Of a stretch of DNA of 64,000 nucleotides, positions 2,504-31,719 are shown one piece after another (positions within the stretch are counted from its first letter, which is position 1; each line of letters starts with the position of its first letter). A program made the translations under genes and the position numbers. The notes below the pieces were generated by a model. The model saw only the letters and a program-made list of their open reading frames with translations, was not told the DNA's origin and searched no databases. Origin of the DNA: a virus (taxonomy: Duplodnaviria > Caudoviricetes); the IMG/VR virus record IMGVR_UViG_3300037067_005321, positions 32,001 to 96,000 of that record, one strand, 5' to 3'.

Positions 2504-2569
2504 TTATTTTTTACCTCCACAACCTTTTCCACCTTTTTTGGGTTTAGGCTTATCTTTCTTTTTAACCAA
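2504..2569 (-). CDS. 21-aa Lys/Gly-rich peptide (MVKKKDKPKPKKGGKGCGGKK), not in ORF track
   Basis: TTG start right after the upstream stop, GGAGG RBS, TAATG coupling to next ORF. Confidence 0.5.
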   Translation of the reverse strand: MVKKKDKPKPKKGGKGCGGKK

Positions 2570-2872: not shown

Positions 2873-3054
2873 TATCTTTTCTTCTTTCTTCTTTTAGATT
2901 GTTTTTGTTTAGATGTTACTTTCTTTCTACGCTTATTCTTTCTAAGATATTCTTTATAACCTTTAGCATGTCCGTGCTCATTATACCATTTACGCCAGAG
3001 ATCAGGATGGTTAATTTTTAAAAATAGTTCTTGTTGTGGACTTGAGAAGGGCAT
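2872..3054 (-). CDS. Small basic phage protein (MPFxSxxQ...HP..W type)
   Basis: N-terminal motif of a kind frequent in phage head modules; basic tail; GGAGG RBS. Confidence 0.55.
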   Translation of the reverse strand: MPFSSPQQELFLKINHPDLWRKWYNEHGHAKGYKEYLRKNKRRKKVTSKQKQSKRRKKKR

Positions 3055-3056
3055 AC

Positions 3057-15767: not shown

Positions 15768-17293
15768 TACATAAGTTCTTTCAATATTTGGTTATCTTCT
15801 AATAAAATATTATCACTTACTTTTTTAGTAGTATATCCTTTGAAACACCACGCTTCTAAAGGCTTACAATCTTGGCAAACATCTTTATAAATTACTTCTT
15901 GTATATTGTTTGTAATAACTTTATAAACACCAAATAATTCTGCATCATGCCAAGAAATTAATCCACCATCTTTAACTATAGGATAATAATTAATAGTATC
16001 ACTATTTACACTATTAAAATCATGTCCACCATCAATATAACAAAAATCTACTTGTTCTTGTATATCTTTTATAGCATCATCTGATGTTTTTTCTATCCAA
16101 ATTATTCTATCTTTATACTTCTCTAATTTCTGATATGCTTCTTTTTTCCACTCAATTACATTTTTAAAGTGAGCATAGTCAACATAAGAATCAACCAAAT
16201 ATAACTTCTTTATATCAAGATTTTCTAATATATTTAGAGCATTAGCACCATCAGATACACCAATTTCTATACCTATTAAATCTTTTTTATCTCTTAAAGT
16301 TCTCAAAGATGGCCTGTTAATTGTATCTGGTATTGGCCTTTCATTAAAACATCCTGCTTTCTCTAATTCATATAGAAATGCTGCTATATCAGACATAATA
16401 GTATCTGCATCTATGGCTCTATAATCTGTAACATATCTAAATGAACAAGGAACATTTCCTCGATTGTAATGGGAAATGTGTCTCTCACGTTCATGTCCAA
16501 TTATATAGGAATTACAACCACTTAACATAGATACTGATGTTAAAAAAGATTGGCTAGAGATGGAGCAAACTGAATTATTTAAATATGCTATTATCTTTTC
16601 TAATTTATCCTCACCATTGTAAGATATCAGGTTTATAACATCATTTGATTCAGGATAATCAGCTAGACATGCACCATTAGGTGTACCACCCAATACTATT
16701 AGGAAATCTTCTTTTAATCTATCTACTACTTCTTTCCATACGTATACGGGAACATTCCTATTACTAGCTCTTTCTCTATTTCTAGGAAATATACATATTA
16801 TAGGCTTATTAAAATTTACTATTTGTAAATCTGATTTATACATAGAGAATATCTGTGGCATATTATCAATAATATGATTACAACCACGCGGAGTAAAAAA
16901 TTCTACCGTATTCTCAGAAGTATAATCGTAAAATTGTCTTATATATTCTATAATATCTGAATAAATATCTGGTGGAGTAAGACTACCAGCAGGAGATCCC
17001 TTTTCTACTAATTCATAACAATCTCTATCAAATCTGTCTGAATATACAAACTCAGGTAATGGTAACATCAAATAAGCAAAATCTGAAACAAGACAAGATA
17101 CAGACATATCCATAAATAATATAAATTTATAATCAGGATATTTTTCTTTTTTTAGGAATCGCAGATGCCCAAAAAATTCTTGTATTCCCCACCCAAATTC
17201 ACCGCAAAAGAAACTAACAAATATCTTTTCATCTTTAAGTTTATTTTTTATTTCTTCTGGAGTTCCTTTTTCAAATTCTATAGTTTCAATCAT
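15767..17293 (-). CDS. GT-B-like domain fused to Methyltransf_24 domain
   Basis: N-terminal GEFGW...FPR.R...RN.P...W; C-terminal EIGVSDG, DFCYIDGGH, GG...WHD. Confidence 0.72.
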   Translation of the reverse strand: MIETIEFEKGTPEEIKNKLKDEKIFVSFFCGEFGWGIQEFFGHLRFLKKEKYPDYKFILFMDMSVSCLVSDFAYLMLPLPEFVYSDRFDRDCYELVEKGSPAGSLTPPDIYSDIIEYIRQFYDYTSENTVEFFTPRGCNHIIDNMPQIFSMYKSDLQIVNFNKPIICIFPRNRERASNRNVPVYVWKEVVDRLKEDFLIVLGGTPNGACLADYPESNDVINLISYNGEDKLEKIIAYLNNSVCSISSQSFLTSVSMLSGCNSYIIGHERERHISHYNRGNVPCSFRYVTDYRAIDADTIMSDIAAFLYELEKAGCFNERPIPDTINRPSLRTLRDKKDLIGIEIGVSDGANALNILENLDIKKLYLVDSYVDYAHFKNVIEWKKEAYQKLEKYKDRIIWIEKTSDDAIKDIQEQVDFCYIDGGHDFNSVNSDTINYYPIVKDGGLISWHDAELFGVYKVITNNIQEVIYKDVCQDCKPLEAWCFKGYTTKKVSDNILLEDNQILKELM

Positions 17294-17325
17294 TAATTAT
17301 AACCTTTCTATTGTTTACTTTCTAT

Positions 17326-17373
17326 AATATAAACATTATATACTATTTGTCAAGGGGTAAAGTGAAAATAATT
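17326..17373 (-). promoter_or_regulatory. Promoter of the glycan island (16-bp-spacer family)
   Basis: TTGACA-N16-TATATT; 29 bp (17345-17373) identical to 39105-39133. Confidence 0.7.
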
Positions 17374-17382
17374 TAAATTATT

Positions 17383-17769
17383 TTATAAATTATCCTTAAC
17401 ATATCTCTTATGATATGCATTTTTTGCACCTAAACATACTCCATAATACATTGGGTATCTAATATATACTGGTTTATTTCTAACAGTCATAGCTTCAAGA
17501 AATACTTTATTACTTATCTCAAAAGATACTATAGGAATACTATCTATTCTAAAAATGTAATCATGTATTACTGCTTCTCTATGTGCTCTATCACCAAATA
17601 AAGAATATATAATTGGAAGTCTGGGGACACTAGCAAAATCAGTTTGAAAATCTACTGGAACTTCAATTCTTCCTACTAAATCAGATTCATAAATTAATGG
17701 AGCATCTAAAATCCAGATCTTATCATTATCTAAAAGAGTTATTTTTAACTGAGTTAAAAATCTTGCCAC
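17383..17769 (-). CDS. DUF1353-family protein
   Basis: VP..F.TDFASVPR, AVIHDY, FLEAM; usual neighbour of lysis genes. Confidence 0.8.
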   Translation of the reverse strand: MARFLTQLKITLLDNDKIWILDAPLIYESDLVGRIEVPVDFQTDFASVPRLPIIYSLFGDRAHREAVIHDYIFRIDSIPIVSFEISNKVFLEAMTVRNKPVYIRYPMYYGVCLGAKNAYHKRYVKDNL

Positions 17770-17861
17770 TATTTATCAACTTCTTTTTTCTTCTTTAATC
17801 TCAAAATTTCTAATATAAGAGTAACTAGTGTTATAGCTTTATCAATAGGTATTCTAGCCAT
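17769..17861 (-). CDS. 30-aa peptide MARIPIDKAITLVTLILEILRLKKKKEVDK (not in ORF track)
   Basis: Fills the gap between holin-like and DUF1353 genes, overlapping both. Confidence 0.4.
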   Translation of the reverse strand: MARIPIDKAITLVTLILEILRLKKKKEVDK

Positions 17862-18072
17862 TTTGTACTTCCTTTAGCTCTTTTTCTCTTTTAGATGCTC
17901 TCCACTTTCCATATATAGCAATGCCAATACCTGCAAGAGTTATTATAACATTTATAAGACTTGCTTGTTCCTCAGAACTGAGTTCTATACCACATAAATT
18001 AAGTATTTGTGGTACTAGAGCTATAACAAGACCACTATATGTAATCTTACCCTGTAATATTTGCTGGCTCAT
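17854..18072 (-). CDS. Putative holin
   Basis: 72 aa, two hydrophobic segments, AIYGKWRA plus basic C-tail; next to endolysin. Confidence 0.6.
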   Translation of the reverse strand: MSQQILQGKITYSGLVIALVPQILNLCGIELSSEEQASLINVIITLAGIGIAIYGKWRASKREKELKEVQNG

Positions 18073-18085
18073 TTAATATCACTTC

Positions 18086-18553
18086 CTATAAATATAATTT
18101 AGCTATTAATTTTTCACTTTCTAAAAATGAAAGTATTATATCAAAATCTACTTCTTCAAAATTTACATTTATTAATTCACCAGATAAAGTTCCTGGTTGT
18201 ATAATTTCCATAGCAGCAATAACTTTAGGTGAGAATAATTTTAATTTAGCATTAATATAATTAACTGCATCAAGATATGTTAATTTAATATTATCTCTTT
18301 TAACTGTATTTATATCATTTTCTATACTATTTATTACTTTTATAATATCCTTTGCAGATATTTCTTTACCTTCTAAACCAGCTACTGTGCCTATTTTTAT
18401 TATTTTACCTACTTTATCTAAAGTAACTCCTTTTTCATTCGCTATTTTTGATAAAACAGAATTAGAAGTATCTGTATCAACCAAATTTACAGAGTTTAAT
18501 GAGCAACTAGCACAAAATATTAAAGTTGCTATTAATATAATTAATTTATACAT
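18086..18553 (-). CDS. Putative lipoprotein (lysis accessory/spanin-like)
   Basis: Signal MYKLIILIATLIFCASC with lipobox-like Cys. Confidence 0.5.
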   Translation of the reverse strand: MYKLIILIATLIFCASCSLNSVNLVDTDTSNSVLSKIANEKGVTLDKVGKIIKIGTVAGLEGKEISAKDIIKVINSIENDINTVKRDNIKLTYLDAVNYINAKLKLFSPKVIAAMEIIQPGTLSGELINVNFEEVDFDIILSFLESEKLIAKLYL

Positions 18554-18574
18554 ATTTATTCTCCTTTTATATAA

Positions 18575-18913
18575 TTATTTTTCATCAAAACTATAATGAT
18601 TTCCATCTTTAAATCTTCCCCCCCAAGAACATCTTGGATGAAGAGATTCCCAATATTCACCAAATTGTTTATGTGCTTCTGTGGTAGTTTGATATACTTT
18701 ATTAATATATAAAAGTATATCCATAGCAAGACCTAATTCATGCTTACTACCAACTTTGTGATTAGTAGTAGGTGCTTTTTTTGTTCTATGAATTGTACCT
18801 TCATCAAAAACTGCTTCATACCCTGGTATAGAATTCATATAATCAATCTGTTTACATATTAATTTTGTAAATAGACATCTATCTTCTCTTAAACTCATTT
18901 TATAAATCTCCAA
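18575..18913 (-). CDS. M15-family peptidase endolysin
   Basis: SKHELGLAMD and WGGRFKDGNHYS Zn-binding motifs. Confidence 0.85.
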   Translation of the reverse strand: MEIYKMSLREDRCLFTKLICKQIDYMNSIPGYEAVFDEGTIHRTKKAPTTNHKVGSKHELGLAMDILLYINKVYQTTTEAHKQFGEYWESLHPRCSWGGRFKDGNHYSFDEK

Positions 18914-19037
18914 ATATGTTTTTCATATAAAATACCAAGTCTTTTAGCCAAATATTTATGAATACCTATATTTCTAAGTCTACAATAAATATGAAGTGGA
19001 TTTAGAAAATGACTTAATAAGCTATTCATATTATTGT

Positions 19038-19421
19038 TTATTCACCCACAACCACCCCGACGCTTAGATTTCGTGGAGGATTCGGAATCTCCACTATCGT
19101 CTCGAAAGGGACGGTATATTCTACCTCGTTTGAGGGGTTGCTTTCACCAGCCTCATTAAATGCCTTCACAACCAGATAATAAGTTTCGGAATCTACCCAG
19201 TCAGTAAAGGCTTGAGACATCAGCATATAGTTTTCCGTGGTATCAGGAGAGACTCCTGTGTAAGTCCCAGATGTTATCCCTCTGTATATTCTATATCCCT
19301 CAACTACACTACCGCCATCAGGGGAATCCCATTGTATCATTCCACCATTTGGGATAGAGGCAAAAGAAAAGGTTAGGCAGAATAAAAGTAAGATTGCTGC
19401 TGTGATTAATATTTTTTTCAT
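19038..19421 (-). CDS. Secreted fibronectin type III protein
   Basis: Signal MKKILITAAILLLFCLTFSFA; WD...GYRIY.G...YY.VVKAFN.AGES..SNEV. Confidence 0.8.
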   Translation of the reverse strand: MKKILITAAILLLFCLTFSFASIPNGGMIQWDSPDGGSVVEGYRIYRGITSGTYTGVSPDTTENYMLMSQAFTDWVDSETYYLVVKAFNEAGESNPSNEVEYTVPFETIVEIPNPPRNLSVGVVVGE

Positions 19422-19438
19422 TGTAATAATCCTCCGGG

Positions 19439-20977
19439 TCAATTAAATCTTCCACCATTACCGGCTCCTAAACCTGTCACAGACCCACCTGATCCTGAAC
19501 CAAGCCCCGAGATTGATCCGGCAGCGGTTAAACTTGCACTTGAATTATTAGTTACTGTTTTATCATCTTCTGCTGTGAGGTCATTACTTGAAGCGTCCGC
19601 GGCCTCTCCTGCGCTTGTAACTATATCAAGTGTACAGGTATCCCCAGAATAAATCTGATTCTCATTTAAAAATGTCCACTGACTCGTACCACTTCCCGAT
19701 GAGTAAGTAAGATCAACTCCATCACCGGCAGTTGAGCAGTCAAGATTGAAATCTCCAACATCAACGCTGACGTTGGTAACTGCCTCAGAGAAAGTAACTA
19801 CGGTTGTTGTGCCTCCGACTGGGATTGAGGCAGAGGAAAAAGCGGGGGCTACTTCATCTGTGCCTAGATCCATTGTGTATGCTGGTGATATTTCCCCAGA
19901 AGCATTAACGACATAGAGATATACAGTATCATCATCTTCAAATGACCCTTGATTCAAGGTGAATGTAATTCCTGTATCATTCCATGTCGCAGGTACTTGT
20001 ATTTCTGTATGACTTGCAGAACCATAATCAGGCCATGTTAAATCGTCTGTGTTTGATATAATTATATGTGCTTGTGTACTATCAATATATAATTGATCCA
20101 GATACTCATTACCCGATGGAGCTGATCCTGTAACCTGTCCTATCCTATGCCATCTTACATCGTTTCCATCAGCTTCATTGCCAAAGAAACAAACATTCGT
20201 AGCCCTCCACCATGTTTTTCCATCTACAATGAAAATCGAATATCCATCAGTGTTTCCAGTAGATGTGTTCCAATGTATAAAATATTCAATATGATGCCAT
20301 TGTTGGAGAGGTAGTAAGGTAGCAGTAGTAGGGCTATATGACCCTCCCCCGTACTGCCCTGCTGAAACTGTGTTATAAGCTAATGTACCATTCCATGTTA
20401 AATCACCAGCATTGCCATCCCCTCCTGATATTGTAGCATAGGTTCCTCCAGTATTTTGTACTGTCCATACAGGAGAAGGATAGTAAGGGCTATTGCTGTC
20501 TGTCCAAACTCTATAAAATTTCTCATTTGTATTGTTACCTAACCCATAGGCTGCATAATCTCTATACATCCAGAATGAAACATACGTGTCCGTTGCAGAT
20601 GATTGATTATATCCGACATGATGATAATCTGAACCACTATCAGTCCTTGGCACATAACTTGCTTTTAAGTTGGATTGAGTTATGCTCGCCCTTGGAGATG
20701 CACTTGACAAAATTACATCCCCCTGAGTTGTAGCCCATGACCCGCCCAATGAATCTATTTCATCAGTGTTTGACCCTGATGAAAAATTGTTAGTTGCCGT
20801 AGCATTGTCATAACTAGATATCAATGGGGCAGCTGTTTTTGTTCCGAAACCTGATCCAGCAATCATAATAGTTTGACCATTGATAAAAGTTCCAGTTACA
20901 CTATCAATATCTGGAGCTGCCAATGCCATGCTTGCAAAACCTAAAATTAAAAAGGATATAATGTATTTTATGAGCAT
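19439..20977 (-). CDS. Secreted lectin/LamG-like beta-sandwich protein with C-terminal Ig-like domain
   Basis: Signal MLIKYIISFLILGFASMALA; YVSFWMY, QWHHIEY, IVDGK; C-terminal APAFSSA...VTFSEAV. Confidence 0.6.
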   Translation of the reverse strand: MLIKYIISFLILGFASMALAAPDIDSVTGTFINGQTIMIAGSGFGTKTAAPLISSYDNATATNNFSSGSNTDEIDSLGGSWATTQGDVILSSASPRASITQSNLKASYVPRTDSGSDYHHVGYNQSSATDTYVSFWMYRDYAAYGLGNNTNEKFYRVWTDSNSPYYPSPVWTVQNTGGTYATISGGDGNAGDLTWNGTLAYNTVSAGQYGGGSYSPTTATLLPLQQWHHIEYFIHWNTSTGNTDGYSIFIVDGKTWWRATNVCFFGNEADGNDVRWHRIGQVTGSAPSGNEYLDQLYIDSTQAHIIISNTDDLTWPDYGSASHTEIQVPATWNDTGITFTLNQGSFEDDDTVYLYVVNASGEISPAYTMDLGTDEVAPAFSSASIPVGGTTTVVTFSEAVTNVSVDVGDFNLDCSTAGDGVDLTYSSGSGTSQWTFLNENQIYSGDTCTLDIVTSAGEAADASSNDLTAEDDKTVTNNSSASLTAAGSISGLGSGSGGSVTGLGAGNGGRFN

Positions 20978-21540
20978 AGATACACCCTGAATGTTCTATC
21001 AAAAGTTTCGTTGCTTGACATGTCCCAACTATTATCAACGCTAGTTATAGCCACTCCACCGGCATATCCTGCGGCTGTATCATAATACCATTTCGCAGCA
21101 CCTGCCGTCCCTGATGTCAAAGCTGCACCACAATAATAGGTTGTAGATGCCGACACAGCTCCCTTAGTGACAAAAGTAAATTTTACCCATCCCGATCCAG
21201 ATAAAACGACTGAAGCTGTTGCAGTATAGGATGTTAAATTACTAGATGTACCCCATCTAACTTCGACTGTGGGATGTGTCCCATCGTCATATAAATACAA
21301 TTCTATTGATGACAATGCTCCAGCAGAGCATTGAAATGATTGTCCGATGGCTCCATAATTCTGTCCATCGTAGTAAATAGTTTTAGCTCCAGTATTGGTT
21401 TCAAAATTAACATTTACTGCATCGGTTGAACAAGCCGCCGCACCCCCCATAGAAGCACCCTTTCTACTTGTCCCCACATCAGCACTTGAAGACAGCGCAC
21501 AACATAGTATTAAAACAATAAACAAAAGTAATTTTTTCAT
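20968..21540 (-). CDS. Secreted beta-sandwich protein (virion fibre/adhesin-like)
   Basis: Signal MKKLLLFIVLILCCALSSSA; GQSF...LSSIELYL...GWVKFTF...YY...DRTFRVY. Confidence 0.55.
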   Translation of the reverse strand: MKKLLLFIVLILCCALSSSADVGTSRKGASMGGAAACSTDAVNVNFETNTGAKTIYYDGQNYGAIGQSFQCSAGALSSIELYLYDDGTHPTVEVRWGTSSNLTSYTATASVVLSGSGWVKFTFVTKGAVSASTTYYCGAALTSGTAGAAKWYYDTAAGYAGGVAITSVDNSWDMSSNETFDRTFRVYLCS

Positions 21541-21549
21541 AGAAGCTCC

Positions 21550-23838
21550 TTAATTAACATCAGTCCAAGTTCCAAGAGGACCAAATACAGCAATATTATT
21601 TGCATCAATAGCCATAACCGTAATTGTTTCACCAACCGCATCGGCCTGAATAGCATCCCCGGCAGAGCAACCTAAATAAAGGAAAATGTCAGTACCATCA
21701 TTGGGATTAATAGTTAAGGTTTGGGCTACTGTTACTACAAAAGCAACTGATTTTCCTATCCAGGTAGATGCTTCTGGCAATGTATATATAGTTCCATCTC
21801 CATCACCTGTATTTGTCCATACTTGACCAATTTGTGCAATCGTCATTGCCTCATTATCAATATCGGCAGTTACTTTTTTTGTATCGGTAATCTGCAATGC
21901 AGTCCTGATATCAGTTGCTCCCGAATCTGTAGCAACCAATATTTCATTGTCAGTTGCCGTATTAAAATCAACATTCAAATTCTCGGAACCGGAAATAGCA
22001 GCAGGAGCATCAGCATCCGTCATTGTGCCAAGATAAAGTAATTCCCCTGATGCATCCCACCACACATTAGTATTCCAAGTTCCGGCAGCACTTCCACCTA
22101 CTGTGGCTATCCGAAAATCACCAACCTCTCCATCTTCTGTGGTTGTTGTTTGCTGACCATAAATCTTAACTGTTTCCTCATCTGTATATTCTGCCCCGGC
22201 TGCATCTGAATCCATAAGCCCAGTATAAGGAGAGGCAGCGCCGGCAGACCTTATTTCATCAGCTGTAGTTATAAGGTCGGCATTGGTAGTTAAAGTACCA
22301 GCAGAATGGGTTATAGTCACATTGCCATTATCCCAATTTATAACTCCTCCAGAGGCTAAGAATAAATCAGACCACATAACAGAGGTAGAACCTAATGCCG
22401 CCCCATCAGTGGCATCAGGGAATGATCCGTTTGAAGATATTGTGCTTGTAAATGTAACAGCAGGCGTAAAGGCAAAAGTGCCACCTGTATTGCTCGCAAA
22501 CGTCCAAATATCAGTTCCAGCAGTAAGAGTAAAATCCTCAGAGTTTGCAAACCCCAAGAAAGCATTTGTAGCATATCCAATCTCTCCATCAGCATCAGGG
22601 GTTGTATCTCCAAGAACAATACCACCAAGGGCCAAGGTGCCAAGTCCATCAAATTTTACTCCTGTACCAAGTGAGACCGCCCTTGATCCATCAATGCCAT
22701 TTGTGAAGGTAAGAGCAGGAACCCACGAAGCTCCTGTATTGTCATAGACCTGTATAGCAAAGGTATGCCCTGCATCAGTAGCTTTTGTCCTGATAACGTC
22801 ACCATTGACAAAGGTAAGGTCATACGCTGCATCTATGGTTTCATCCGTTCCGTCAAGCTCAATAAACGTGGTAGGGCTTCCCGCTATATCTGTAACCAGT
22901 GAGGTTACAACATCATACGCCCCCGTCGAGCCACCTCCTATCTGTGCTGTTCCTGCCGCTGCCGTGGAATCCTGTAATAGAAATGTAGGTGTTGGATCTG
23001 TCAGTGTAGGATCTCCGGTTAGAGCCGGGGAAGCTAGAGGGGCATAATTTGAGGCGGTAATATCATCTGCTATCGAAGCATCTGCAATTGGAGAAGTAAA
23101 TGTCACAGCCGGGGTAATTGTAATTAATGCTCCCGTGGTACTTGCTATTGTCCATAAATCAGCCGAGGGAGTAAATACGAGGTCTTCTGAAATGCCACTA
23201 AGTTTGTGAGAAAGGACATCAGTAGAACCAAGGGTTAACTGAGCAGCTCCGGTTACATCAAATATGCCTGAGCTTGTTATCGTACCGGAAGATGTGATCA
23301 CCCCTGCATCAGTCATTGTAATATCAACCGCCGTTACATCTGACCAGTCAATTTCTTCATCACCTATAACATCATCAGGTAATTCTACTTCTCCTTCACC
23401 AGTACCATCAGTAGTTATTGTAACTGAATCAGTAGTTGCATCACCAAGTATACCAGCAATATTACCAAAGTTTATATTTCCACCGCCTACTGTAACATCA
23501 TCAGTTAAAACAAGAGGTTTAATTATATCTACAGTTTCACTTACTCCATCAATTTGAACATATTCAGTATTTTCTCCAGTGGAATCTTCTGTTCTAAGAC
23601 TTAGTATTGTATCATTAGCTCCACCGGAACTACCAGCACCAATTTCTGCTGTTCCTGCTGCATCATTAGAGTCTCTTAAATTTAATGTTGGTGTGGTATC
23701 AGTAATTGTAGGATCTCCAGTTATTTCTGCATTTACTAAGGAAACACTTCCACTTTCACCTGATACATATGGTCCAGCAATACCAATTGATGGAATAATT
23801 AGAAAAAGAAGTAAAGATAATATAGTCTTTTTTATCAT
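21550..23838 (-). CDS. Signal-peptide-bearing fibre/decoration-like protein with internal repeats
   Basis: Signal MIKKTILSLLLFLIIPSIGIA; duplicated TGDPT.TD.TPT and SED.....D.WT.AS.TG modules; C-terminal N.G....YTLP.A..G...F domain typical of phage fibres. Confidence 0.6.
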   Translation of the reverse strand: MIKKTILSLLLFLIIPSIGIAGPYVSGESGSVSLVNAEITGDPTITDTTPTLNLRDSNDAAGTAEIGAGSSGGANDTILSLRTEDSTGENTEYVQIDGVSETVDIIKPLVLTDDVTVGGGNINFGNIAGILGDATTDSVTITTDGTGEGEVELPDDVIGDEEIDWSDVTAVDITMTDAGVITSSGTITSSGIFDVTGAAQLTLGSTDVLSHKLSGISEDLVFTPSADLWTIASTTGALITITPAVTFTSPIADASIADDITASNYAPLASPALTGDPTLTDPTPTFLLQDSTAAAGTAQIGGGSTGAYDVVTSLVTDIAGSPTTFIELDGTDETIDAAYDLTFVNGDVIRTKATDAGHTFAIQVYDNTGASWVPALTFTNGIDGSRAVSLGTGVKFDGLGTLALGGIVLGDTTPDADGEIGYATNAFLGFANSEDFTLTAGTDIWTFASNTGGTFAFTPAVTFTSTISSNGSFPDATDGAALGSTSVMWSDLFLASGGVINWDNGNVTITHSAGTLTTNADLITTADEIRSAGAASPYTGLMDSDAAGAEYTDEETVKIYGQQTTTTEDGEVGDFRIATVGGSAAGTWNTNVWWDASGELLYLGTMTDADAPAAISGSENLNVDFNTATDNEILVATDSGATDIRTALQITDTKKVTADIDNEAMTIAQIGQVWTNTGDGDGTIYTLPEASTWIGKSVAFVVTVAQTLTINPNDGTDIFLYLGCSAGDAIQADAVGETITVMAIDANNIAVFGPLGTWTDVN

Positions 23839-23847
23839 AATATCACC

Positions 23848-24219
23848 TTAATTCTTTGTATAATATATTGTATAAGCCACAGTACCAGCAGCAAGAGTAA
23901 CATCAACATATATACCATTATTATATTGAACACCTGGATCAAAACCAAATACTTGAGTTGTTGAAGAACTTGCAACAACTACCCAAGAATTTATTATTTT
24001 TGTACCGGATGCTGCTGTATTATCATATACAGTAACAGTTACACTATTTACACCATCTGTTAATACAGATATACCATAAAACTTGCCAGCACCACCAACT
24101 ACTTTTGCATCTGCTGCATATGCAGTAGAGGGAATACAATATTCTACTGATTGTGCATAGACTAATGATGGAACACAAAATAATATCATTATAAAAATTA
24201 AATTTAATAATTTTTTCAT
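23848..24219 (-). CDS. Signal-peptide-bearing small virion-like beta protein
   Basis: Signal MKKLLNLIFIMILFCVPSLVYA; G.F.GISV...V.VYDNTAASGT...G..Y.NGIYV motif seen in phage structural proteins. Confidence 0.55.
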   Translation of the reverse strand: MKKLLNLIFIMILFCVPSLVYAQSVEYCIPSTAYAADAKVVGGAGKFYGISVLTDGVNSVTVTVYDNTAASGTKIINSWVVVASSSTTQVFGFDPGVQYNNGIYVDVTLAAGTVAYTIYYTKN

Positions 24220-24222
24220 ATT

Positions 24223-24645
24223 TTACCTCACTTCCTGATTCTCATTACTAATAGGTCTAGTAGTTTGTGGATTAGTTATAAGCTTGTTAAGCAAGTCTTT
24301 TATATCACCTAATTCTTCCTTCAATTCTTTTCTATCTTCTTTTTGAGTAGTTTTTATTTCTTCTATGCCCTTTTGCATAGAATCAACTTTTTCCTTTAAT
24401 ATATAAATATCTTCTGTATGTTTATTAACAGTTTCTGCCTTTGCATATACATAACTAGCAGTATTAGAAGAAAACCAAACCCTTATTCCAGTAGTATAAA
24501 GTGGAATTAAAACCAAAGTACATATAGCTACTATAATTATAGGAGATGGTCTTTTTATATATTCTTTTAAACAAGTTTTATCTGCTTTTGTAACTTTCAT
24601 ATTTGCTATATCATCATGTAGATTTTCATGCTTTTCACATATCAT
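24223..24645 (-). CDS. Single-TM coiled-coil protein
   Basis: Hydrophobic IIIVAICTLVLIPLY followed by heptad-rich region. Confidence 0.5.
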   Translation of the reverse strand: MICEKHENLHDDIANMKVTKADKTCLKEYIKRPSPIIIVAICTLVLIPLYTTGIRVWFSSNTASYVYAKAETVNKHTEDIYILKEKVDSMQKGIEEIKTTQKEDRKELKEELGDIKDLLNKLITNPQTTRPISNENQEVR

Positions 24646-24654
24646 AGAATTCTC

Positions 24655-25047
24655 CTACTTTAACTCTCTCAAAAAAAGATCTGCATAAATATTAGTTGGA
24701 CTAGCTGATGGAGAAGCAACTGTGCTAGGAACTTTAAGACCTAATCTTATTTGAGAAGTAGGATAATTAACTTTTATTAATTTTGATACTGTAGGATTTG
24801 CAGTAGATATAGTTCCAGAATCTATACTAGCTACTCTATCTGAACCAGTAAATTTACCTTCTATTCTATATGTAATGGAATTGGATGTAAGTGTTGCACA
24901 ACAAAGAGATATTACTACATCACTAGCTTTACTAGAAAACCAACCTGTAGCAGTAGTTGTACCACCAGAACTATTATAAACAAAATGGGATGCAGTCAAA
25001 TTATAATTGCTAAACATACTACGCAATGACTGTGCTTGAACTGTCAA
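24655..25047 (-). CDS. Ser/Thr-rich putative virion decoration protein
   Basis: TTG start with GAGGTG RBS; beta-rich; in head module. Confidence 0.5.
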   Translation of the reverse strand: MTVQAQSLRSMFSNYNLTASHFVYNSSGGTTTATGWFSSKASDVVISLCCATLTSNSITYRIEGKFTGSDRVASIDSGTISTANPTVSKLIKVNYPTSQIRLGLKVPSTVASPSASPTNIYADLFLRELK

Positions 25048-25198
25048 AATGAATCACCTCTATAATATAATATCTTCCTTAGTTTTAGAATCAATAGTAG
25101 TCTCAGTATTAGAATAATCAAATCAATATCAATAGGAAAGAGGGAATATGGAAGAATAAAACAATAATAACTATAAATAGATTATAATCATTAGTGTT

Positions 25199-25276
25199 TT
25201 GCCAACTCTCTAAAGCCTAAAGAGTTGGCAAGAAAAAGACTCTCTAAATTTTGCATTGTCAAGAGGCATAGAGAGT
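25199..25276 (-). terminator. Tandem hairpins, probable intrinsic terminator
   Basis: On minus strand ACTCTCTA...TAGAGAGT followed by CTTTTT, then TTGCCAACTCT/AGAGTTGGCAA stem. Confidence 0.55.
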
Positions 25277-25297
25277 ATGGTAAGTTACTGAAATTAC

Positions 25298-25642
25298 TTA
25301 TGTTTGATCACAAAGGCTGGCGACAGTATTGCTGGAAAATCTGTATAGACCGTTACCTGCCAACACTATTGAACCAAGAATAGTTGCACTTTGACAAGTT
25401 AAAGTTGCTTCAGCAGGAAGACTAGCAGCAGTATTTTTACCAGAGAAAAATATAAACTTTCTATTTGCACCAGTTCCTATTTTAATATAACTGGATACAG
25501 TTACAGCAGGAGCACTTGCAGCAGTTCCTACCACTAAATTTGTTGCAGCAACCGTAGCACATGTTACTGTGGCAAAACCTTTTATGTCAACTTTTGCTCC
25601 TGTTTTTGGATATAAATTACTTTTATAATGTGAATTTCCCAT
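25298..25642 (-). CDS. Ala/Thr/Ser-rich putative virion decoration protein
   Basis: Composition and position downstream of the major capsid gene. Confidence 0.5.
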   Translation of the reverse strand: MGNSHYKSNLYPKTGAKVDIKGFATVTCATVAATNLVVGTAASAPAVTVSSYIKIGTGANRKFIFFSGKNTAASLPAEATLTCQSATILGSIVLAGNGLYRFSSNTVASLCDQT

Positions 25643-25739
25643 CTAACACCTTCCATTGTTGAGGTACATAAATATCTGGGTAAATACTTATGATATCATA
25701 TCGGAATAATATGAATCCTCTTTATTAAATAAACTAAGT

Positions 25740-26336
25740 TTATTTTTTCAACACCCAAACTTTCTGCTTGGGATTTGTCCTATCAACTAAATCTACTTTA
25801 TAACCATGTTCTTTGCATAAATAATCAACTATATTAACATTTGTCATTCTGAGAACACTTTCATTCTTATTAGCAATCTCAGATGCTTGTGTTTTATATA
25901 TATTCATCTTTTGTCTAGTTACTTGAGTTTCAGAAATTGGTGTTCCATGCTGATATCTATTAATAAGTTCAATTACTTCCTTTTTGGTTACTTTATGAGT
26001 AGAAAGAAAATCAGATAGTAATTCATTTGGATCTTCTTCTTTTGCAGATAACATATTCTTTCTTAGTTCTTTTTGTGTTATTCCTATATCTTCTATTTGT
26101 GAAGATGATACTACATTATTTATTATATCCTCTTCTTTTATTTCTACTATAGATTCATCATCATCTTTAAATTGATTTTCTGATAAATCTAATACTTCCT
26201 CTTTATTATCTGAATCAACTATCTCAGTTCCCTTCTCATAAACATCATAATCCTCTTTAGACATTTTATGCAATTTACGGATATGGACTGTTAGATTAAC
26301 AAACTTTTTACCACAAACTTTACATTCTTTTTCCAT
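25740..26336 (-). CDS. C2H2 Zn-finger protein, hypothetical
   Basis: CKVCGKKF..L..HIRKLH at the N-terminus. Confidence 0.55.
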   Translation of the reverse strand: MEKECKVCGKKFVNLTVHIRKLHKMSKEDYDVYEKGTEIVDSDNKEEVLDLSENQFKDDDESIVEIKEEDIINNVVSSSQIEDIGITQKELRKNMLSAKEEDPNELLSDFLSTHKVTKKEVIELINRYQHGTPISETQVTRQKMNIYKTQASEIANKNESVLRMTNVNIVDYLCKEHGYKVDLVDRTNPKQKVWVLKK

Positions 26337-26375
26337 ATATAAGCTACCTCCATAGCTGTTTAGTTACATCCGTAA

Positions 26376-26645
26376 CTATTTCTTTAATTTATTATATTGT
26401 TCTGAAACAGACTTTCTTTGCTGACCTAAAGTATCAATATAGATTACATTAGAATCATAATCACTTTCATTACCATAAGCAGACTCTATATCTTTGCGAT
26501 ATGCTTTTAACCCTTCCGAGTTTTTAGCATAAGTACCATATAACTTCTTTCCTTTTTTCCATTTAAAAGCTTCTGACATATCTTTACTAGTAGTAGAAAT
26601 TTCACTAGTAGCAGAAACTGTTAATGTATCCTGATCAAAGCCCAT
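26376..26645 (-). CDS. Hypothetical head-module protein
   Basis: ORF with GAGGTG RBS. Confidence 0.5.
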   Translation of the reverse strand: MGFDQDTLTVSATSEISTTSKDMSEAFKWKKGKKLYGTYAKNSEGLKAYRKDIESAYGNESDYDSNVIYIDTLGQQRKSVSEQYNKLKK

Positions 26646-26649
26646 TTAA

Positions 26650-27516
26650 TCACCTCTTAAAATTTAAGTATAATAGTATACTTTCAAATGTTCTCATTTG
26701 ATCATCTGATATAACCTCATAGGAATATCCATTTTCTTCTGCAAATTTATATCCAGCTTCTATTTTAGCTATAGTTTTTGGAAATTCTAATTTATATTTA
26801 GGTTTTATCTCTTGTATATATCTATCATTAATGATAAAATCTGGTACATAATTTCTAATATGTCCTTCAAATTCATACTTTATTATAAAAGGTTCCATAT
26901 CATATTTGATTACATCATCTGAAAATTCTAAGATATTTAAGTATATTTCTTCCCAAGAGGATCTATATAAAAAAGTTTTATTATTTTTAATTGAATAAAA
27001 ATAACCTTGTTTATGATATTTTCCTCTTATAATTCCTTTAGCAGCATTTTCAGAAACTCTATCAGCAACTTCTGGTATTTTCATTGGATTATCAACACCA
27101 TATTTTTCTAACAAAGTTTTTTCTCTACTATCTTTTGCTTTTAACATTGAAGAAACTTTATGAGTTTTACCAGCAAAAGAATTATTATCTAATTGACTTA
27201 TAGATATTTTATTCTTATGATCTTGTGATAATTTTCTTCCTTTAGTAGAGATATTTCCAATAGCAATTTTACTTTGTAATTCTTTTTTATAATCAGACAT
27301 TAATTTTGCATCTGGAAATAATTTTAAGTATTCTTCTTTAGTTAAATTATGTCTATTTTTTAAATGTTTAGGATTTAAATAAGTTCTTTTTAAACCACAT
27401 ATTTTACACTCAATATAATCTATATTTTCTATTCCATCTTTAAATTTTATCAAAGATTTTTCTACTTCATGTCTTATTAAATAATTAAGAGATCTTTCTC
27501 TAGAAGACATTGCCAT
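26650..27516 (-). CDS. Free-standing TnsA-like PD-(D/E)XK endonuclease with Zn-finger and NUMOD-type DNA-binding modules
   Basis: CKICG...HL..H....EY...FP; LEKYGVDNP; YRSSWE...EPF.I.Y...YVPDF...EIKP. Confidence 0.75.
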   Translation of the reverse strand: MAMSSRERSLNYLIRHEVEKSLIKFKDGIENIDYIECKICGLKRTYLNPKHLKNRHNLTKEEYLKLFPDAKLMSDYKKELQSKIAIGNISTKGRKLSQDHKNKISISQLDNNSFAGKTHKVSSMLKAKDSREKTLLEKYGVDNPMKIPEVADRVSENAAKGIIRGKYHKQGYFYSIKNNKTFLYRSSWEEIYLNILEFSDDVIKYDMEPFIIKYEFEGHIRNYVPDFIINDRYIQEIKPKYKLEFPKTIAKIEAGYKFAEENGYSYEVISDDQMRTFESILLYLNFKR

Positions 27517-27604: not shown

Positions 27605-27632
27605 AATATAATCATTTTATTTCTTTTGTCAA
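27605..27632 (-). promoter_or_regulatory. Promoter, 16-bp-spacer family
   Basis: TTGACA-N16-TATATT with TGAT. Confidence 0.65.
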
Positions 27633-27673: not shown

Positions 27674-28633
27674 CTAAATGGCGTTGGCGATCCAATGTCT
27701 CCACTGGTTAATACACCCACCAAACCTTGTAAAAATTGTTGCATAATATCTCTTTGACGTTTCATCCTGCCAGAAATCAAGAGTGACATCCTCACGATTT
27801 GTGGCTAAAAGACCATTCCTCAATTTTCCCATGAACCAACCATCTGTATCAGTAAGATATGCCCACTCCATAGGAGTAAGTATTTGATACATTGTGTTGA
27901 CATCATTATCCTGATTACCAGGAATTAAGGTACTATTGAGAATTGTCTGAGCAGTAAACTTCAATGCAGGAGGAATCAAAAGAACATCAGGTATAAGTTC
28001 TATACGATCATCTCTTTCATCCCTATTGTTAGTTGTAGTATACTGCAAATAAACAGTCTCAAGATTATCCTTCGTCAATGTATATGACGAATTGTAGTTA
28101 GAGTAATCAGTTCCACCTTTACTTGTATGAGAAGTAGAGAAGAAATAATCACCATCATAAATATAACCAGATGCACCCATTGTATCATCAATAACACCTG
28201 TTATAGTGTTATTAAATACATCAGTACCAGCACCATTGGCTCCATAATTAAAAAACTTAGCATAGAATTTCTCTTTTGTAATAGGAAGCTTTTGACTCCA
28301 AGAAGCTACTGCATTCTGTAAAAGATTACCTGACTTTTTAGAATCCTTCATTGATTCATAAGAGAACTTTGTACCTCTTGCAAAAGATTTATTAGCACAT
28401 ATAATTGTGTAACTTTCAATGGGGGCCTCAAATTCTATATCCTCATCTTCAGGTTTTTCTAACAATTCACCCAACCCAATAGCAGACGAAAACTTTTCGT
28501 AAGCCGCATCGGAAGGAATAACATCAAAAATTTGCTCATACTTCGGGGGGGTTTGTGGATAGGCTTCCCAAAAATAACTATATGAGTCACGTTTCATTCC
28601 TTCGGTAAAATCTGAACGTTTTACACCAGCCAT
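27674..28633 (-). CDS. Major capsid protein (Mu-like gpT/HK97 fold)
   Basis: 319 aa; YDGDYFFSTSH, PDVLLIPPAL, YLTDTDGWF, R.G.....WR; follows scaffold and decoration genes. Confidence 0.85.
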   Translation of the reverse strand: MAGVKRSDFTEGMKRDSYSYFWEAYPQTPPKYEQIFDVIPSDAAYEKFSSAIGLGELLEKPEDEDIEFEAPIESYTIICANKSFARGTKFSYESMKDSKKSGNLLQNAVASWSQKLPITKEKFYAKFFNYGANGAGTDVFNNTITGVIDDTMGASGYIYDGDYFFSTSHTSKGGTDYSNYNSSYTLTKDNLETVYLQYTTTNNRDERDDRIELIPDVLLIPPALKFTAQTILNSTLIPGNQDNDVNTMYQILTPMEWAYLTDTDGWFMGKLRNGLLATNREDVTLDFWQDETSKRYYATIFTRFGGCINQWRHWIANAI

Positions 28634-29168: not shown

Positions 29169-30089
29169 TTATTCTTTTTTAGGATGCAATTTTGCATCTC
29201 TCTTCTTTTTAATCTCTATAAGATCTTCAACTGAAAGACCTTTTTCATCTGCTTCTTCAATTAAATCTGGATCTTTTGGATCATATGTACCTGGAGTGCT
29301 CTTAGAGAGCTTTTTATTTTTGTCAGATGAGTCATCCCCACCCTTCTTTAGATCCGGTCCACCTACTTTAATTTTAGACTTTACAAGGTTCTCATTTTTA
29401 GGATCTGATAGAAATTCTTTGACAATATCTTCAACTGTTTTTCTATCCTTCAATTTTCCGTTATTGTCTCTTATATCATGTGAAAATTCATCCAAACTTT
29501 CATCATACTCAAATTTATACTCAAGCATATTCATTATTTGAGAAGGATTAAAGGCATCATACTTAATAGCAGATTCCATTAGTTCACTCCTAAGCCTTGA
29601 TTTTCTTAAATTTGAAATAACGCCATCTTTGTCTGCTAACTTCTTTTGTAATTCTTCAGTAGCTTTTTTTGTACCATTAAGATTGTCTTCCATCTCTTTC
29701 TTAAAAGTATCAAACTTTTTATTGAAAGAGAATTCAGCTTTTTCAAGATCAGACTTCTTACTCATTTCCAAATCTTCCTTCTCCTTGTCAATTGAAGCTT
29801 TATGATCTTTCAATTCTTGGAGTTCTTTCTTTAGAGCAGTAAGTTCATCACCTTTAGGCATATCTTTAATTTGTGCCTCAAGATCTTTCATCTGATCACG
29901 CAATTTATTACGTTCCTCTTTGACTTTATCTCGATCTTTAAACGCCTTTTTACTTTCTTCTTTCCAGAATTTCTTATCCTTCTTCTCTTCTTCTTCTATC
30001 TGTTTTGTTAAATCATCATCACTAATATTTTCATCTTTTATTTCAATTTCCAACTCTTTTGCTTTATCTAAAAGTTCTTTCTTTGCCAT
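29169..30089 (-). CDS. Capsid scaffolding protein
   Basis: Charged coiled coil between portal and capsid genes. Confidence 0.75.
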   Translation of the reverse strand: MAKKELLDKAKELEIEIKDENISDDDLTKQIEEEEKKDKKFWKEESKKAFKDRDKVKEERNKLRDQMKDLEAQIKDMPKGDELTALKKELQELKDHKASIDKEKEDLEMSKKSDLEKAEFSFNKKFDTFKKEMEDNLNGTKKATEELQKKLADKDGVISNLRKSRLRSELMESAIKYDAFNPSQIMNMLEYKFEYDESLDEFSHDIRDNNGKLKDRKTVEDIVKEFLSDPKNENLVKSKIKVGGPDLKKGGDDSSDKNKKLSKSTPGTYDPKDPDLIEEADEKGLSVEDLIEIKKKRDAKLHPKKE

Positions 30090-30144: not shown

Positions 30145-31719
30145 TTATTCAGTTTTATTAAAAACTTTCTTTTTACTTTTCTTACCTTTTACTAATTCTT
30201 CATTTTGCTTTTTAGATGTGAATGTGTTAGCTAAACGATTTACATTAGGATTTCCATCATCCTCAATATCAGAATCATTTGTACCATCAAAAGAATTTCC
30301 ACCCTTGATTGATTCTACAATTCCATCTCCATCTTCAATCTCTTGTTCAATTTCAGATTTAATATCATCTGTAATAGTTGGTAGAGATTTAGCAGCAACT
30401 TTCTTCTGTAAAGTCTTATTAAGTCTAACAGAAAAATTCCTTTCCATAACTTTAAGTATAGAATCTAATTCATCTTGTAAAGCAGCTATATCAAAAGTAG
30501 TAGGATATTTTACAGGAACATATTTGGAATAATCTTCACCCAAGTAATCATATACTATTTTAGATATATCATTTTCAGCCTTTTGATATGAGCTCGCTTT
30601 TTCAACAAGAGCAGAATTAACACTCATAAAACCCATTTGTTTGGAACGTCCACTTACTGACGCATACATATCTTCTGATGATCCTATAAGTCTAGCCAAT
30701 CTATATATCTCTTTTATATGATCTATAACAAGTGACCATATAGTTTGTATATTAGCTACATCTGGAGATATAAATTGGGGAGGATGTGTTGCATCACCAG
30801 AGAATGTCCAAACAGATGAAGTACCAATCTGGTGCAATGGATCTTCTTCATCCTCATTTTTCTCAGATAATGAACCATCATCTGGAACTACCAATTGAGA
30901 AAAAGTTTGTCTTTCAATCTGTTCATCTATACAGGAACACCAGTTAAGAATAGTTCTATTTATATATACTATATCTTTTAATAAAGATTCACCAACTTTA
31001 TCATCTTCCATAGTATTATGATAAATAGTAACAAGAGGTATATAGCCTAAAGGATTCTTTCCAGAAGATTCTTCTTTATCTCCTAACTTTATTTTATTAC
31101 CATCTTGATCCTCAATCCACCATTCCTCTTTTGTATATACAAGAAAATGTTCTTCCTCTTCTCTTTTTATAGTTATGTCTTCATCACGATAGTATGAATA
31201 CTTTACAACTATCCAGTTTAAATCACCATTTGAATCAGTAGACCAATCTACTAATTCTGTGGGTTTAACTATTCTTATTTTAGGAGTAAGTTTTAATTCT
31301 TTTTCTTGAGCTTTTGTAATAGGAGAAGAAGTTTTGAAGGGCATGGTAAGAAGAATATGAACAACACCAAATACTGAGGAAAGATATCCAGATCTTTTGA
31401 TAAGATCTGTAATTGCTAATCTTTGACCATCTACATTTGATCTGAAATATGTTAGTTTTTCATCTGGTGGTCTGTCAATACTTTCTTTCATGATATAAGA
31501 GTTTATCATTTTTGGAAGAGTATCACAAAAATTTAGAAAGTATGCTCTTTGCAATCTTTCATCGTAATCATCAGATTCTTCTAAACGATGAGAAAATAGA
31601 TTTTCATCAGTAACAAAATCATCTCCACCTTTGGCAGCAGAATAATAGAGTTCCCACTTATCCTCATTATCTTCATATTTTGGATGTTTTCTATCAGCTA
31701 TCTTTATCTTGTCTGCCAT
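30145..31719 (-). CDS. Portal protein
   Basis: 524 aa after terminase; HP.Y, R..RA...N, NPLG.IP.V motifs. Confidence 0.85.
   Translation of the reverse strand: MADKIKIADRKHPKYEDNEDKWELYYSAAKGGDDFVTDENLFSHRLEESDDYDERLQRAYFLNFCDTLPKMINSYIMKESIDRPPDEKLTYFRSNVDGQRLAITDLIKRSGYLSSVFGVVHILLTMPFKTSSPITKAQEKELKLTPKIRIVKPTELVDWSTDSNGDLNWIVVKYSYYRDEDITIKREEEEHFLVYTKEEWWIEDQDGNKIKLGDKEESSGKNPLGYIPLVTIYHNTMEDDKVGESLLKDIVYINRTILNWCSCIDEQIERQTFSQLVVPDDGSLSEKNEDEEDPLHQIGTSSVWTFSGDATHPPQFISPDVANIQTIWSLVIDHIKEIYRLARLIGSSEDMYASVSGRSKQMGFMSVNSALVEKASSYQKAENDISKIVYDYLGEDYSKYVPVKYPTTFDIAALQDELDSILKVMERNFSVRLNKTLQKKVAAKSLPTITDDIKSEIEQEIEDGDGIVESIKGGNSFDGTNDSDIEDDGNPNVNRLANTFTSKKQNEELVKGKKSKKKVFNKTE

Follow-up and report, generated by a model that had tools for sequence, protein, structure and literature searches.

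A block of five consecutive genes in the late region of a tailed-phage genome encodes proteins that all begin with predicted export signals. The block occupies positions 19038-24219 of a 64,000-nucleotide stretch of IMG/VR record IMGVR_UViG_3300037067_005321 (hereafter the window, i.e., bases 32001-96000 of a single source contig of 135,715 bp with 28.5% GC). Its products are named here by their length in amino acids (aa) and are, in gene order, w123, w762, w190, w512 and w134. Judged from the sequence, the five N-termini are canonical leaders for Sec export and cleavage by signal peptidase I (SPase-I), and we regard export of the five proteins as highly probable. Tailed phages are, in the textbook view, assembled wholly in the cytoplasm. 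The reading that we rank first, and to which we give an even chance, is that the block would provide accessory gear for host recognition and glycan degradation, which would mature in the periplasm and be added to the particle at lysis.

Five consecutive genes encode proteins with predicted Sec leaders

The five open reading frames (ORFs) are co-oriented on the minus strand and tightly packed, with 9-nt gaps or 4-10-nt overlaps, and the first of them starts 3 nt past an upstream ORF for a transmembrane (TM)/coiled-coil protein (Table 1). Read directly, 5/5 leaders have a basic n-region (1-4 basic residues) followed by 10-14 hydrophobic residues as the core, and positions -3/-1 are taken by small residues. 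The predicted mature N-termini are Q23 (w123), G22 (w762), D21 (w190), A21 (w512) and S22/S29 (w134, which from its TTG start is 7 residues longer than from its internal ATG start). Neither the lipobox hallmark of a Cys at +1 nor the RR of a twin-arginine translocation (Tat) signal occurs in the leaders (0/5); in contrast, ...FCASC, which is lipobox-like, is found in a neighbouring ORF (155 aa), and SRRQFL in two others elsewhere in the genome. A leader heuristic based on hydropathy, charge and the -3,-1 residues, applied to all 209 ORFs of the 135.7-kb genome, flagged 17 of them. Besides the five of the block, these comprise the holin, the nearby lipoprotein, a small number of membrane proteins, two of Tat type and a second small secreted cluster. 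A run of at least five among 17 flagged ORFs in 209 arose in 0.036% of shuffles. Hence, the original prediction, which was made from the DNA letters and proposed that five consecutive ORFs all carry Sec leaders, was borne out by direct reading and by the scan.

Homologues with and without leaders were sought, and both were found. A leader is present in 23/28 homologues of w512 and in all close relatives of w190. Among the 150 best w123-family members, 121 have one and about 20 start straight at the mature domain. In more than 100 homologues the sequence of the leader region is free to vary and its character is kept. In the AlphaFold2 (AF2) models of w123 and w512 the N-terminal helix is detached.

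Conserved cysteine pairs are found in the mature parts of two of the proteins. In the lectin-like third protein one Cys stands right behind the leader and one at most 6 residues from the C-terminus; in w190 these are C37 and C189, i.e., near the N- and C-terminus of the mature part. The positions of the pair are kept in w190, P0121, P0122, L001_247 and L003_202, at 24-44% identity to w190, and L026_237 has by eye the same arrangement. In the enzyme's C-terminal domain, both Cys of LDCSTAG...GDTC.LD are kept in 5/5 sequences. In bacteria, oxidative folding forms disulfides outside the cytoplasm. Conservation of the Cys pairs at low identity (24-54%) thus argues for disulfides, and thereby for real export; the sequences suggest that the module proteins form structural disulfides and fold outside the cytoplasm. 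Together, the leaders, their conservation in homologues and the conserved Cys pairs support export well.

A different reading is that the hydrophobic N-termini would stay uncleaved and serve to anchor the proteins in the membrane or as handles for assembly, so that the proteins would remain at the inner membrane or be assembled in the cytoplasm. The coexistence of homologues with and without the N-terminal segment, both of which can be mixed in one module, would fit this reading. We consider it very improbable: the full n-h-c architecture in 5/5 proteins, with small -3/-1 residues and short h-regions, is typical of cleaved leaders; the leader sequence varies with its character kept; the conserved Cys pairs imply oxidative folding; and the same kind of leader is found on cellular homologues of w512.

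The five genes form a recurrent module

Unrelated uncultured phage contigs of 35-59% GC have the same succession of genes: one for a small protein, then those for a fibre, a lectin-like protein and a large enzyme, and finally lysis genes. In L001, of the SU10-adaptor podovirus type, all four proteins (157, 656, 247 and 661 aa) carry leaders. The contig of the best w123 homologue (P0123) encodes a w123-like protein followed by proteins of 355, 245, 609, 627 and 538 aa, the last two with a β-helix, and then GH108. In L018 a w123-like gene comes first, there are 5-6 leader-bearing ORFs, and, by eye, an M15-like endolysin and DUF1353 pair likewise follows the leader-bearing block. L026 (59% GC, with BPP-1-like head genes) has six leader-bearing ORFs, one of them with a w134-like end, and then a TM/coiled-coil ORF. 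Other modules mix both kinds of protein: in L003 the small protein is leaderless, and the fibre, lectin-like protein and enzyme have leaders and are followed by a Peptidase_M15_3 gene; in L012 the small protein is leaderless and only the leader-bearing fibre is seen, the contig ending just past it; and in L011 the fibre and a CBM96 protein have leaders and the β-helix enzyme has none. On sequence grounds, the five genes appear to be one operon-like, horizontally mobile, conserved module. No relatives of w762, w123 and w512 were present in 50,697 GenBank phage records, and a pattern scan of IMG/VR found none of w512.

The GC content is 0.40-0.42 at window positions 20-24 kb versus ∼0.27 around. 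A Gly/Ala/Thr/Ser-rich composition accounts for most of this rise (GC at second codon positions ∼0.51 in the block versus a genome mean of 0.32). GC at third codon positions (GC3) is 0.24-0.28 in the w762, w190 and w512 genes, 0.40 in that of w134 (the region's highest), 0.08 in that of w123 and 0.28 in the capsid gene, the genome value being 0.17 ± 0.065. Since related modules sit in contigs of higher GC (41-59%), acquisition of four of the block genes from higher-GC phages is plausible. Despite its higher GC, the block is not an assembly chimera, since a 37,977-bp contig spans window positions 16500-27000 with zero differences. The block and its surroundings are present with identical sequence in groundwater and landfill metagenomes (two studies), and the second study tiles the block with identical contigs. 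Two apparent joints in the contig mapping were judged spurious, with sides of only 20 letters and single contigs each.

Such a composition could also point to a moron or lysogenic-conversion island, i.e., acquired genes for a secreted adhesin and glycanase that would serve a lysogen (surface layer, biofilm remodelling) without a role in the virion or in release. The raised GC, the GC3 of 0.24-0.40 in four genes, the 13-kb glycan-synthesis island that adjoins the block, and the further secreted, Tat and lipoprotein genes scattered through the genome are on its side. We hold it to be improbable. Within the late stretch from head to lysis genes, the genes of the block point the same way and are tightly coupled, with promoter- and terminator-like sites in and around the block no commoner than in shuffles; GC3 of the capsid gene is equally raised, and much of the GC rise is amino-acid composition; the module sits at the structural-lysis junction in many unrelated phage contigs; and no integrase was noticed in the 136-kb genome, which encodes its own replication genes, in a search that was not exhaustive.

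The fibre-like protein w762 has a tail-fibre-type distal half

No Pfam or PHROG family matched w762. Residues 21-400 correspond to a shaft, whose matches are almost confined to other leader-bearing phage proteins, and residues 440-520 hold a widespread motif common to many leaderless tail fibres with PF13884 (S74 chaperone), collagen or tail-collar domains. Leaders are present in 26/89 matches to w762, and the remainder are ordinary fibres with the same three kinds of domain. Residues 432-762 make up the distal part and tip; of these, residues 432-694 align to P0036 (33% identity, E 5e-15), a leaderless podovirus fibre encoded directly after an SU10-type adaptor. Identity to the L001 fibre is 57% over 171 aa, and to the L003 fibre 86% over 81 aa. 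From these matches, w762 is a chimera of a leader, a class-specific shaft and a tail-fibre-type distal half. The distal half is homologous to that of a true virion fibre, and this supports an association with the virion. PDB sequence searches with w512 and w762 gave nothing useful.

The large protein w512 resembles polysaccharide lyases

The AF2 model of w512 (predicted local distance difference test score, pLDDT, 76) consists of the leader, an Ig-like part, a β-jelly-roll (∼47-327), one or more Ig-like domains, a C-terminal domain (∼375-480) and a disordered Gly/Ser tail ending in GGRFN. Alignment of residues 47-327 with VIA-align gave, among lyases, the polysaccharide lyase (PL) family PL20 glucuronan lyase 2zzj (Z 15.9, root mean square deviation (rmsd) 2.9, 202 aligned residues), PL36 Aly36B 6kcv (Z 15.2), PL14 5gmt (Z 14.9) and 3gne (Z 14.5), and heparinase I 3ina (Z 13.7); TtX122 8q28 was also matched (Z 15-16). 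With Foldseek, TM-scores by target were 0.52-0.58. The same jelly-roll fold occurs also in GH131, lectins and non-enzymatic modules. We describe w512 as a polysaccharide-lyase-like β-jelly-roll protein with putative lyase activity. PF14099 was matched by the homologue P0021 only, and Pfam gave no match in w512 itself. Foldseek matches to clostridial neurotoxin receptor-binding domains were dismissed, because they reflect only the shared lectin-type jelly roll (TM-score 0.2, rmsd >20 Å).

The C-terminal domain of ∼100 aa, with the motifs LDCSTAG and GDTC.LD, is the constant part of the enzyme. Over its last ∼100 residues, w512 shares 54% and 40% identity with the C-terminal ends of the L001 and L003 enzymes, the N-terminal parts of which differ from that of w512 and look by eye β-helix/pectate-lyase-like, with no Pfam Beta_helix match. 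A constant C-terminal domain joined to differing N-terminal parts indicates that the enzyme head is exchangeable.

The module enzymes end in a conserved Gly/Ser-rich tail (in w512, window 19439-19520, minus strand), and w512 and L003_697 terminate in G-(G/A)-R-F-(N/Q). This tail could be a sorting or docking signal; among known C-terminal sorting motifs, LPXTG, PEP-CTERM and the C-terminal domain of type IX secretion (T9SS CTD), none fits it.

A leader-bearing homologue of the enzyme part (421 aa, 37% identity) is encoded between ftsA and ftsZ on a cellular contig (L006, 6651-7916), and the ftsA-ftsZ gap is an odd location for a secreted lyase-like protein. A further w512 homologue is one of eight consecutive genes for proteins of 355-754 aa, 7/8 of them leader-flagged, on a contig of GCA_964590935.1 (L004, 1146-15091). 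The N-terminal sequences of these proteins have a β-helix/ConA-like secreted look, Pfam Beta_helix was matched only on flanking genes, and there were no phage genes in view. This array may be a cellular counterpart of the enzyme heads, or have been their source.

The small proteins w123, w190 and w134 have predicted jelly-roll, lectin-like and Fn3 folds

The first gene of the module encodes w123, which was modelled as a leader helix followed by an eight-strand jelly-roll of ∼100 aa (pLDDT 94). What the original prediction had called a YDNTAASGT protein is a real and large family. Among 1.84 billion, at least 512 cluster representatives belong to it at E≤1e-3, and the stricter limit of E≤1e-10 leaves 126; its core motif is TADA..TG.G.FYGI.V.TDGTN.VT...YDNT.ASG. 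The family is unnamed, gives a weak match to PHROG 28102 (function unknown), and its Atlas clusters are ∼90% viral. Predicted viral structures of 90-100 aa matched w123 with TM-scores of 0.8-0.88. Against solved structures the matches were borderline: the N-domain of XepA (Z 8.1, rmsd 2.8 Å, 91 residues), Ena1B (Z 8.1) and the KHP40 cement protein (Z 7.3); XepA and YomS (Z 8.1 and 6.8) are the top matches, yet in the range given by unrelated jelly rolls.

Leaderless w123-family genes were also found in a different conserved context (L019 2116-2460, L020 7908-8225 and L021 7908-8222), where a ∼204-aa protein with a weak "virion structural protein" match precedes them and terminase genes lie just downstream. 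The space upstream of these three genes is too small for a missed leader. Near that of L020, a leader-bearing 231-aa protein and a leader-bearing Fn3 protein are encoded.

The call of a lectin-like sandwich for w190 gained support from a weak match to Pfam DUF4082 (PF13313; 14.7 bits against a cut-off of 28.4, E 0.031), a match that L003_202 gives independently, and from an Atlas feature score of 0.93 to viral "DUF4082/Lectin like" clusters (structure TM-score 0.7); w190 is a putative DUF4082/lectin-like β-sandwich. The w123-family profile gave a weak match to w190 (E 0.0012, within this genome's ORFs), and the two may be distantly related sandwiches. The predicted Fn3 domain of w134 was confirmed by Pfam fn3 (PF00041; 28.6 bits against a cut-off of 25, residues 35-108), and its C-terminus is the beginning of a second Fn3-like repeat (PPRNLSVG...; window 19038-19100). 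The leader-bearing Fn3 protein of L020 (127 aa) is its homologue (E 1e-6), and a leader-bearing 110-aa protein of L026 has a C-terminal end resembling that of w134. The w134 gene may be recently acquired or truncated, though these two leader-bearing proteins are similar in size.

Possible virion components or proteins of the infected-cell envelope

In the model that we favour, the module would specify host-surface-directed proteins that are exported through Sec late in infection, each losing its type-I signal peptide on export. The mature parts (the w123 jelly-roll, the trimeric-fibre-like w762 with its tail-fibre-type distal half, the lectin-like w190 sandwich, the polysaccharide-lyase-like w512 and the Fn3 protein w134) would fold extracytoplasmically. 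The gene order is kept across unrelated phages, with the enzyme head swapped and the shared C-terminal domain retained. The enzyme's C-terminal domain and the leader-class-specific shaft of the fibre may act as docking elements in a fibre-lectin-enzyme assembly, which would wait in the periplasm as accessory host-recognition and glycan-degrading gear and would meet the cytoplasm-built particle not before holin and endolysin have opened the cell, a route of "export, then dock". Before lysis, the gear might already act on nascent surface polysaccharide. By analogy, such an export-then-attach route is plausible, and we see the chances that the five proteins end up on virions as about balanced. 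A wider proposal, that tailed phages of many lineages, including this low-GC groundwater siphovirus without the +1-Gln leader habit, use a two-compartment route for recognition gear, with the w123 family as an unrecognised component, is made more tentatively.

Gene position and precedent favour this model. In podovirus-like relatives the order is SU10 adaptor, nozzle, internal proteins, module and lysis genes. T7-type genomes keep the tail-fibre gene between the internal proteins and the lysis genes, so the module sits in the tail-fibre slot of these relatives. A precedent is given by Cellulophaga phages, the records of which were checked. Sec leaders are present on all of phi10:1 (NC_021802) gp091-095 (345, 401, 777 "pectate lyase", 317 "tail fiber" and 496 aa "pectate lyase") and of phi18:3 (NC_021794) gp085-087; gp091-094 and gp085-087, respectively, are annotated as structural proteins with "experimental MS/MS proteomics analysis". 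The consecutive leader-bearing fibre/pectate-lyase genes of these phages lie between tail genes and membrane-protein/endolysin genes, and the block is likewise a set of at least three consecutive leader-bearing fibre/lectin/glycanase genes in a late operon adjoining lysis genes. There are differences. The phi10:1 set lies directly behind tail-tip genes, whereas the block adjoins head and lysis genes, ∼20 kb from the tail genes; the Cellulophaga leaders follow the Bacteroidota habit of Gln at +1, whereas 1/5 does so here, so that the present instance appears to be of a non-Bacteroidota type; and detection in virions by mass spectrometry (MS) is annotated for the Cellulophaga proteins, whereas the block is known from its genes.

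Several findings weigh against a place of the block proteins on the particle. The phage encodes a complete lambda-type tail without leaders, outside the window at 11.6-31.7 kb of the genome (∼20 kb from the block), comprising the major tail protein, tape measure (1458 aa), Dit, gpL-like and gpK-like proteins, an I-J fusion (2399 aa) that would be the central fibre, and a side-fibre-like protein (301 aa); with this tail of its own, the particle needs no block protein for receptor binding. BLAST revealed no similarity between the block and the phage's own tail proteins, and the idea of receptor decoys with tips common to both was rejected on the same result. In w762 no N-terminal particle-attachment domain was recognised, the leader running directly into the shaft. 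Over its N-terminal 360 residues, w512 has its best relatives among secreted proteins, of which some clearly belong to cells. No homology to the Cellulophaga regions was detected at E≤1 (three profiles and every block protein, run with hmmsearch and phmmer on the ORFs of the two regions), so that precedent is an architectural analogy only. Finally, leaders are gained and lost among homologues, even inside one module (the leaderless small protein of L003 and β-helix protein of L011); such turnover would fit proteins that meet their partners or targets only after the cell opens, and favours neither a virion nor a non-virion role. The term "virion-like" of the original prediction hence holds in part: it stands for the distal half of w762, and fits poorly with the relatives of the w512 enzyme part and with a real tail that is encoded elsewhere without leaders. 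Overall, the interpretation given there is partly supported.

The alternative that was already named there, exported proteins that act on the cell surface and are never part of the virion, is a serious rival, which we rank second and think rather unlikely. The block would then be a lysis-linked exit or anti-trapping kit directed at the infected cell's envelope, in which the lyase, with aid from the lectin, Fn3 and fibre proteins, would degrade or mask surface or nascent polysaccharide (receptor or capsule), so that progeny are not trapped on debris or capsule and superinfecting phages are excluded. The full leaderless tail, the lack of a recognised virion anchor on w762 and the cellular secreted homologues of the w512 enzyme part agree with it, as do the embedding of the block between the TM/coiled-coil ORF and the endolysin-holin genes, the exported XepA as top PDB match of w123 at a borderline Z of 8.1, and parallels to XepA, T5 Llp and enzymes that trim exopolysaccharide (EPS) in the periplasm (WceF, AlgL). 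It is at odds with the tail-fibre slot in podovirus-like relatives, with the homology of the fibre's distal half to that of a true virion fibre, and with the annotated MS detection of the analogous leader-bearing Cellulophaga proteins in virions; a 762-aa fibre would also be elaborate for a masking or exit task.

A role of glycosylation was dropped, because the D/E-x-N-x-S/T sequon occurs in 0/5 proteins and the Bacteroidota O-glycosylation motif only a few times.

Comparison with known systems

No published description of such export-tagged modules was found in the literature searched; the nearest systems are XepA, the MAT fibres, WceF and T5 Llp. XepA of PBSX is an exported lysis-cassette protein that is absent from particles (PMC6834076). 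XepA and YomS (PBSX/SPbeta; PDB 6i56 and 6i5o; PMC6834076) resemble the present case in that XepA is a β-sandwich protein whose gene lies immediately 5' of the holin and endolysin genes; XepA is a two-domain pentamer of a phage with a Gram-positive host, no sequence similarity to w123 was found, and the Z value is at the chance level for jelly rolls. The MAT fibres of Bdellovibrio bacteriovorus (PMC10769870) share with w762 a signal peptide, a family-specific N-terminal region and swappable C-terminal tips, in tail-fibre-like trimers. They are likened to it by layout only, being the predator's own cell-surface proteins, whereas the w762 gene is part of a late operon of a phage, alongside those for its lectin and lyase partners.

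Virion fibres and tailspikes (P0036, P22-type) are alike in the distal half and repeat motif, which in w762 are homologous to those of P0036, in the pairing of enzyme and fibre, and in head swapping. Canonical fibres and spikes, in contrast, have an N-terminal particle-binding domain and no leader, and fold in the cytoplasm; in the module enzymes, unlike canonical spikes, it is the C-terminal part that is conserved and putatively serves docking, and the N-terminal, catalytic part that varies. WceF of Pantoea stewartii is a polysaccharide-degrading enzyme with a tailspike fold and an export signal, whose gene belongs to an EPS cluster and which, in periplasmic transit, may already act on the polymer (PMC7949094); it differs in being bacterial, in using Tat and not Sec, in having a β-helix and not a jelly-roll, and in the EPS-cluster location of its gene. 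The receptor-masking lipoprotein Llp of phage T5 (preprint 10.64898/2026.03.26.714494) and the Sec-exported endolysins of the fOg44 type (as cited in PMC6834076) are phage proteins that likewise act in the infected cell's envelope by way of host export signals; each is a single small protein with another fold and a defined role, and not a five-gene set.

The module would either add an extracytoplasmic branch to virion assembly or define a widespread class of phage-secreted envelope-remodelling proteins. The metagenomic prediction of receptor-binding proteins and depolymerases is affected in both cases, as leader-bearing candidates are usually discarded as "host-like", and expression of such proteins may need periplasmic, oxidising conditions. 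The module also bears on release and superinfection in uncultured phages of groundwater, soil and sediment. As parts, it supplies a 100-residue jelly-roll family (w123), a jelly-roll lyase head, a Cys-paired C-terminal domain to which differing enzyme heads are joined, and the lectin's terminal Cys staple.

Genome setting and neighbouring genes

The phage contig carries a 120-bp direct repeat at both ends, which fits a circular or terminally redundant phage genome. The late genes and the block are listed in Table 1. Upstream of the block, in the region described in the original prediction as "capsid-decoration", the 114-, 130- and 160-aa ORFs matched no Pfam or PHROG family, whereas the predicted lysis genes were found downstream as a Peptidase_M15_4 endolysin and a holin.

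Table 1. The five-gene block and its neighbours on the late strand of the window (arrows mark predicted leader cleavage).
Feature	Window position	Strand	Remarks
Terminase large subunit	31728-33644	-	First listed in the late gene order
Portal	30145-31719	-	After terminase large subunit
Scaffold	29169-30089	-	After portal
160-aa ORF		-	Between scaffold and major capsid gene; no family match
Mu-gpT-like major capsid protein	27674-28633	-	
Nuclease gene and small ORFs		-	Between major capsid gene and 140-aa ORF
w140, 140 aa	24223-24645	-	Type II membrane protein; TM ∼34-56, long C-terminal coiled coil
Five leader-bearing ORFs	19038-24219	-	Between 140-aa ORF and lysis cassette
w123, 123 aa	23848-24219	-	Leader ∼22 aa MKKLLNLIFIMILFCVPSLVYA, cleavage VYA↓Q
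w762, 762 aa	21550-23838	-	Leader 21 aa, ...LFLIIPSIGIA↓G
w190, 190 aa	20968-21540	-	Leader 20 aa, ...LILCCALSSSA↓D
w512, 512 aa	19439-20977	-	Leader 20 aa, ...LILGFASMALA↓A
w134, 134 aa	19038-19442	-	Leader MKKILITAAILLLFCLTFSFA, cleavage SFA↓S, counted from internal ATG
Peptidase_M15_4 endolysin	18575-18913	-	Directly downstream of block
Putative lipoprotein, 155 aa	18086-18553	-	Unusually large; between endolysin and holin
Holin	17854-18072	-	
DUF1353 protein	17383-17769	-	After holin
Sugar-modification (glycan-synthesis) island, ∼12 kb		-	Beyond lysis cassette
Head-tail adaptor and neck genes	1325-4079	-	Beyond sugar-modification island

The w140 protein has a 30-residue, Cys/His-rich cytoplasmic N-terminus and gave a weak match to an Rz-like spanin PHROG (E 0.002). 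Small TM/coiled-coil ORFs flank the module in L011 and L026 also, and comparison revealed no sequence homology of w140 to these. It is possibly part of the module operon or of the lysis cassette.

As to the host, no tRNAs are encoded within the window, the large terminase subunit (TerL) is only ∼31-34% identical to those of phages from many phyla, and in the genome-contig scan a DegT-like gene gave a single match, at 23% identity, in a metagenome-assembled genome. Two identical near-consensus promoter-like sites (TTGACA, 16 nt, TATATT; 11/12) lie on the minus strand at 27605-27632, preceding the nuclease gene after the capsid gene, and at 17326-17353, preceding the sugar-modification island.

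Outside the window, a second exported cluster (genome 124955-126281, L023) encodes a 92-aa protein with a Sec leader, a 120-aa lipoprotein and a 227-aa Peptidase_C39-like protein with a Sec leader, and two ORFs at genome 114107-115221 (L024) have an identical twin-arginine leader. In total, the phage is predicted to encode at least 12 envelope-directed proteins.

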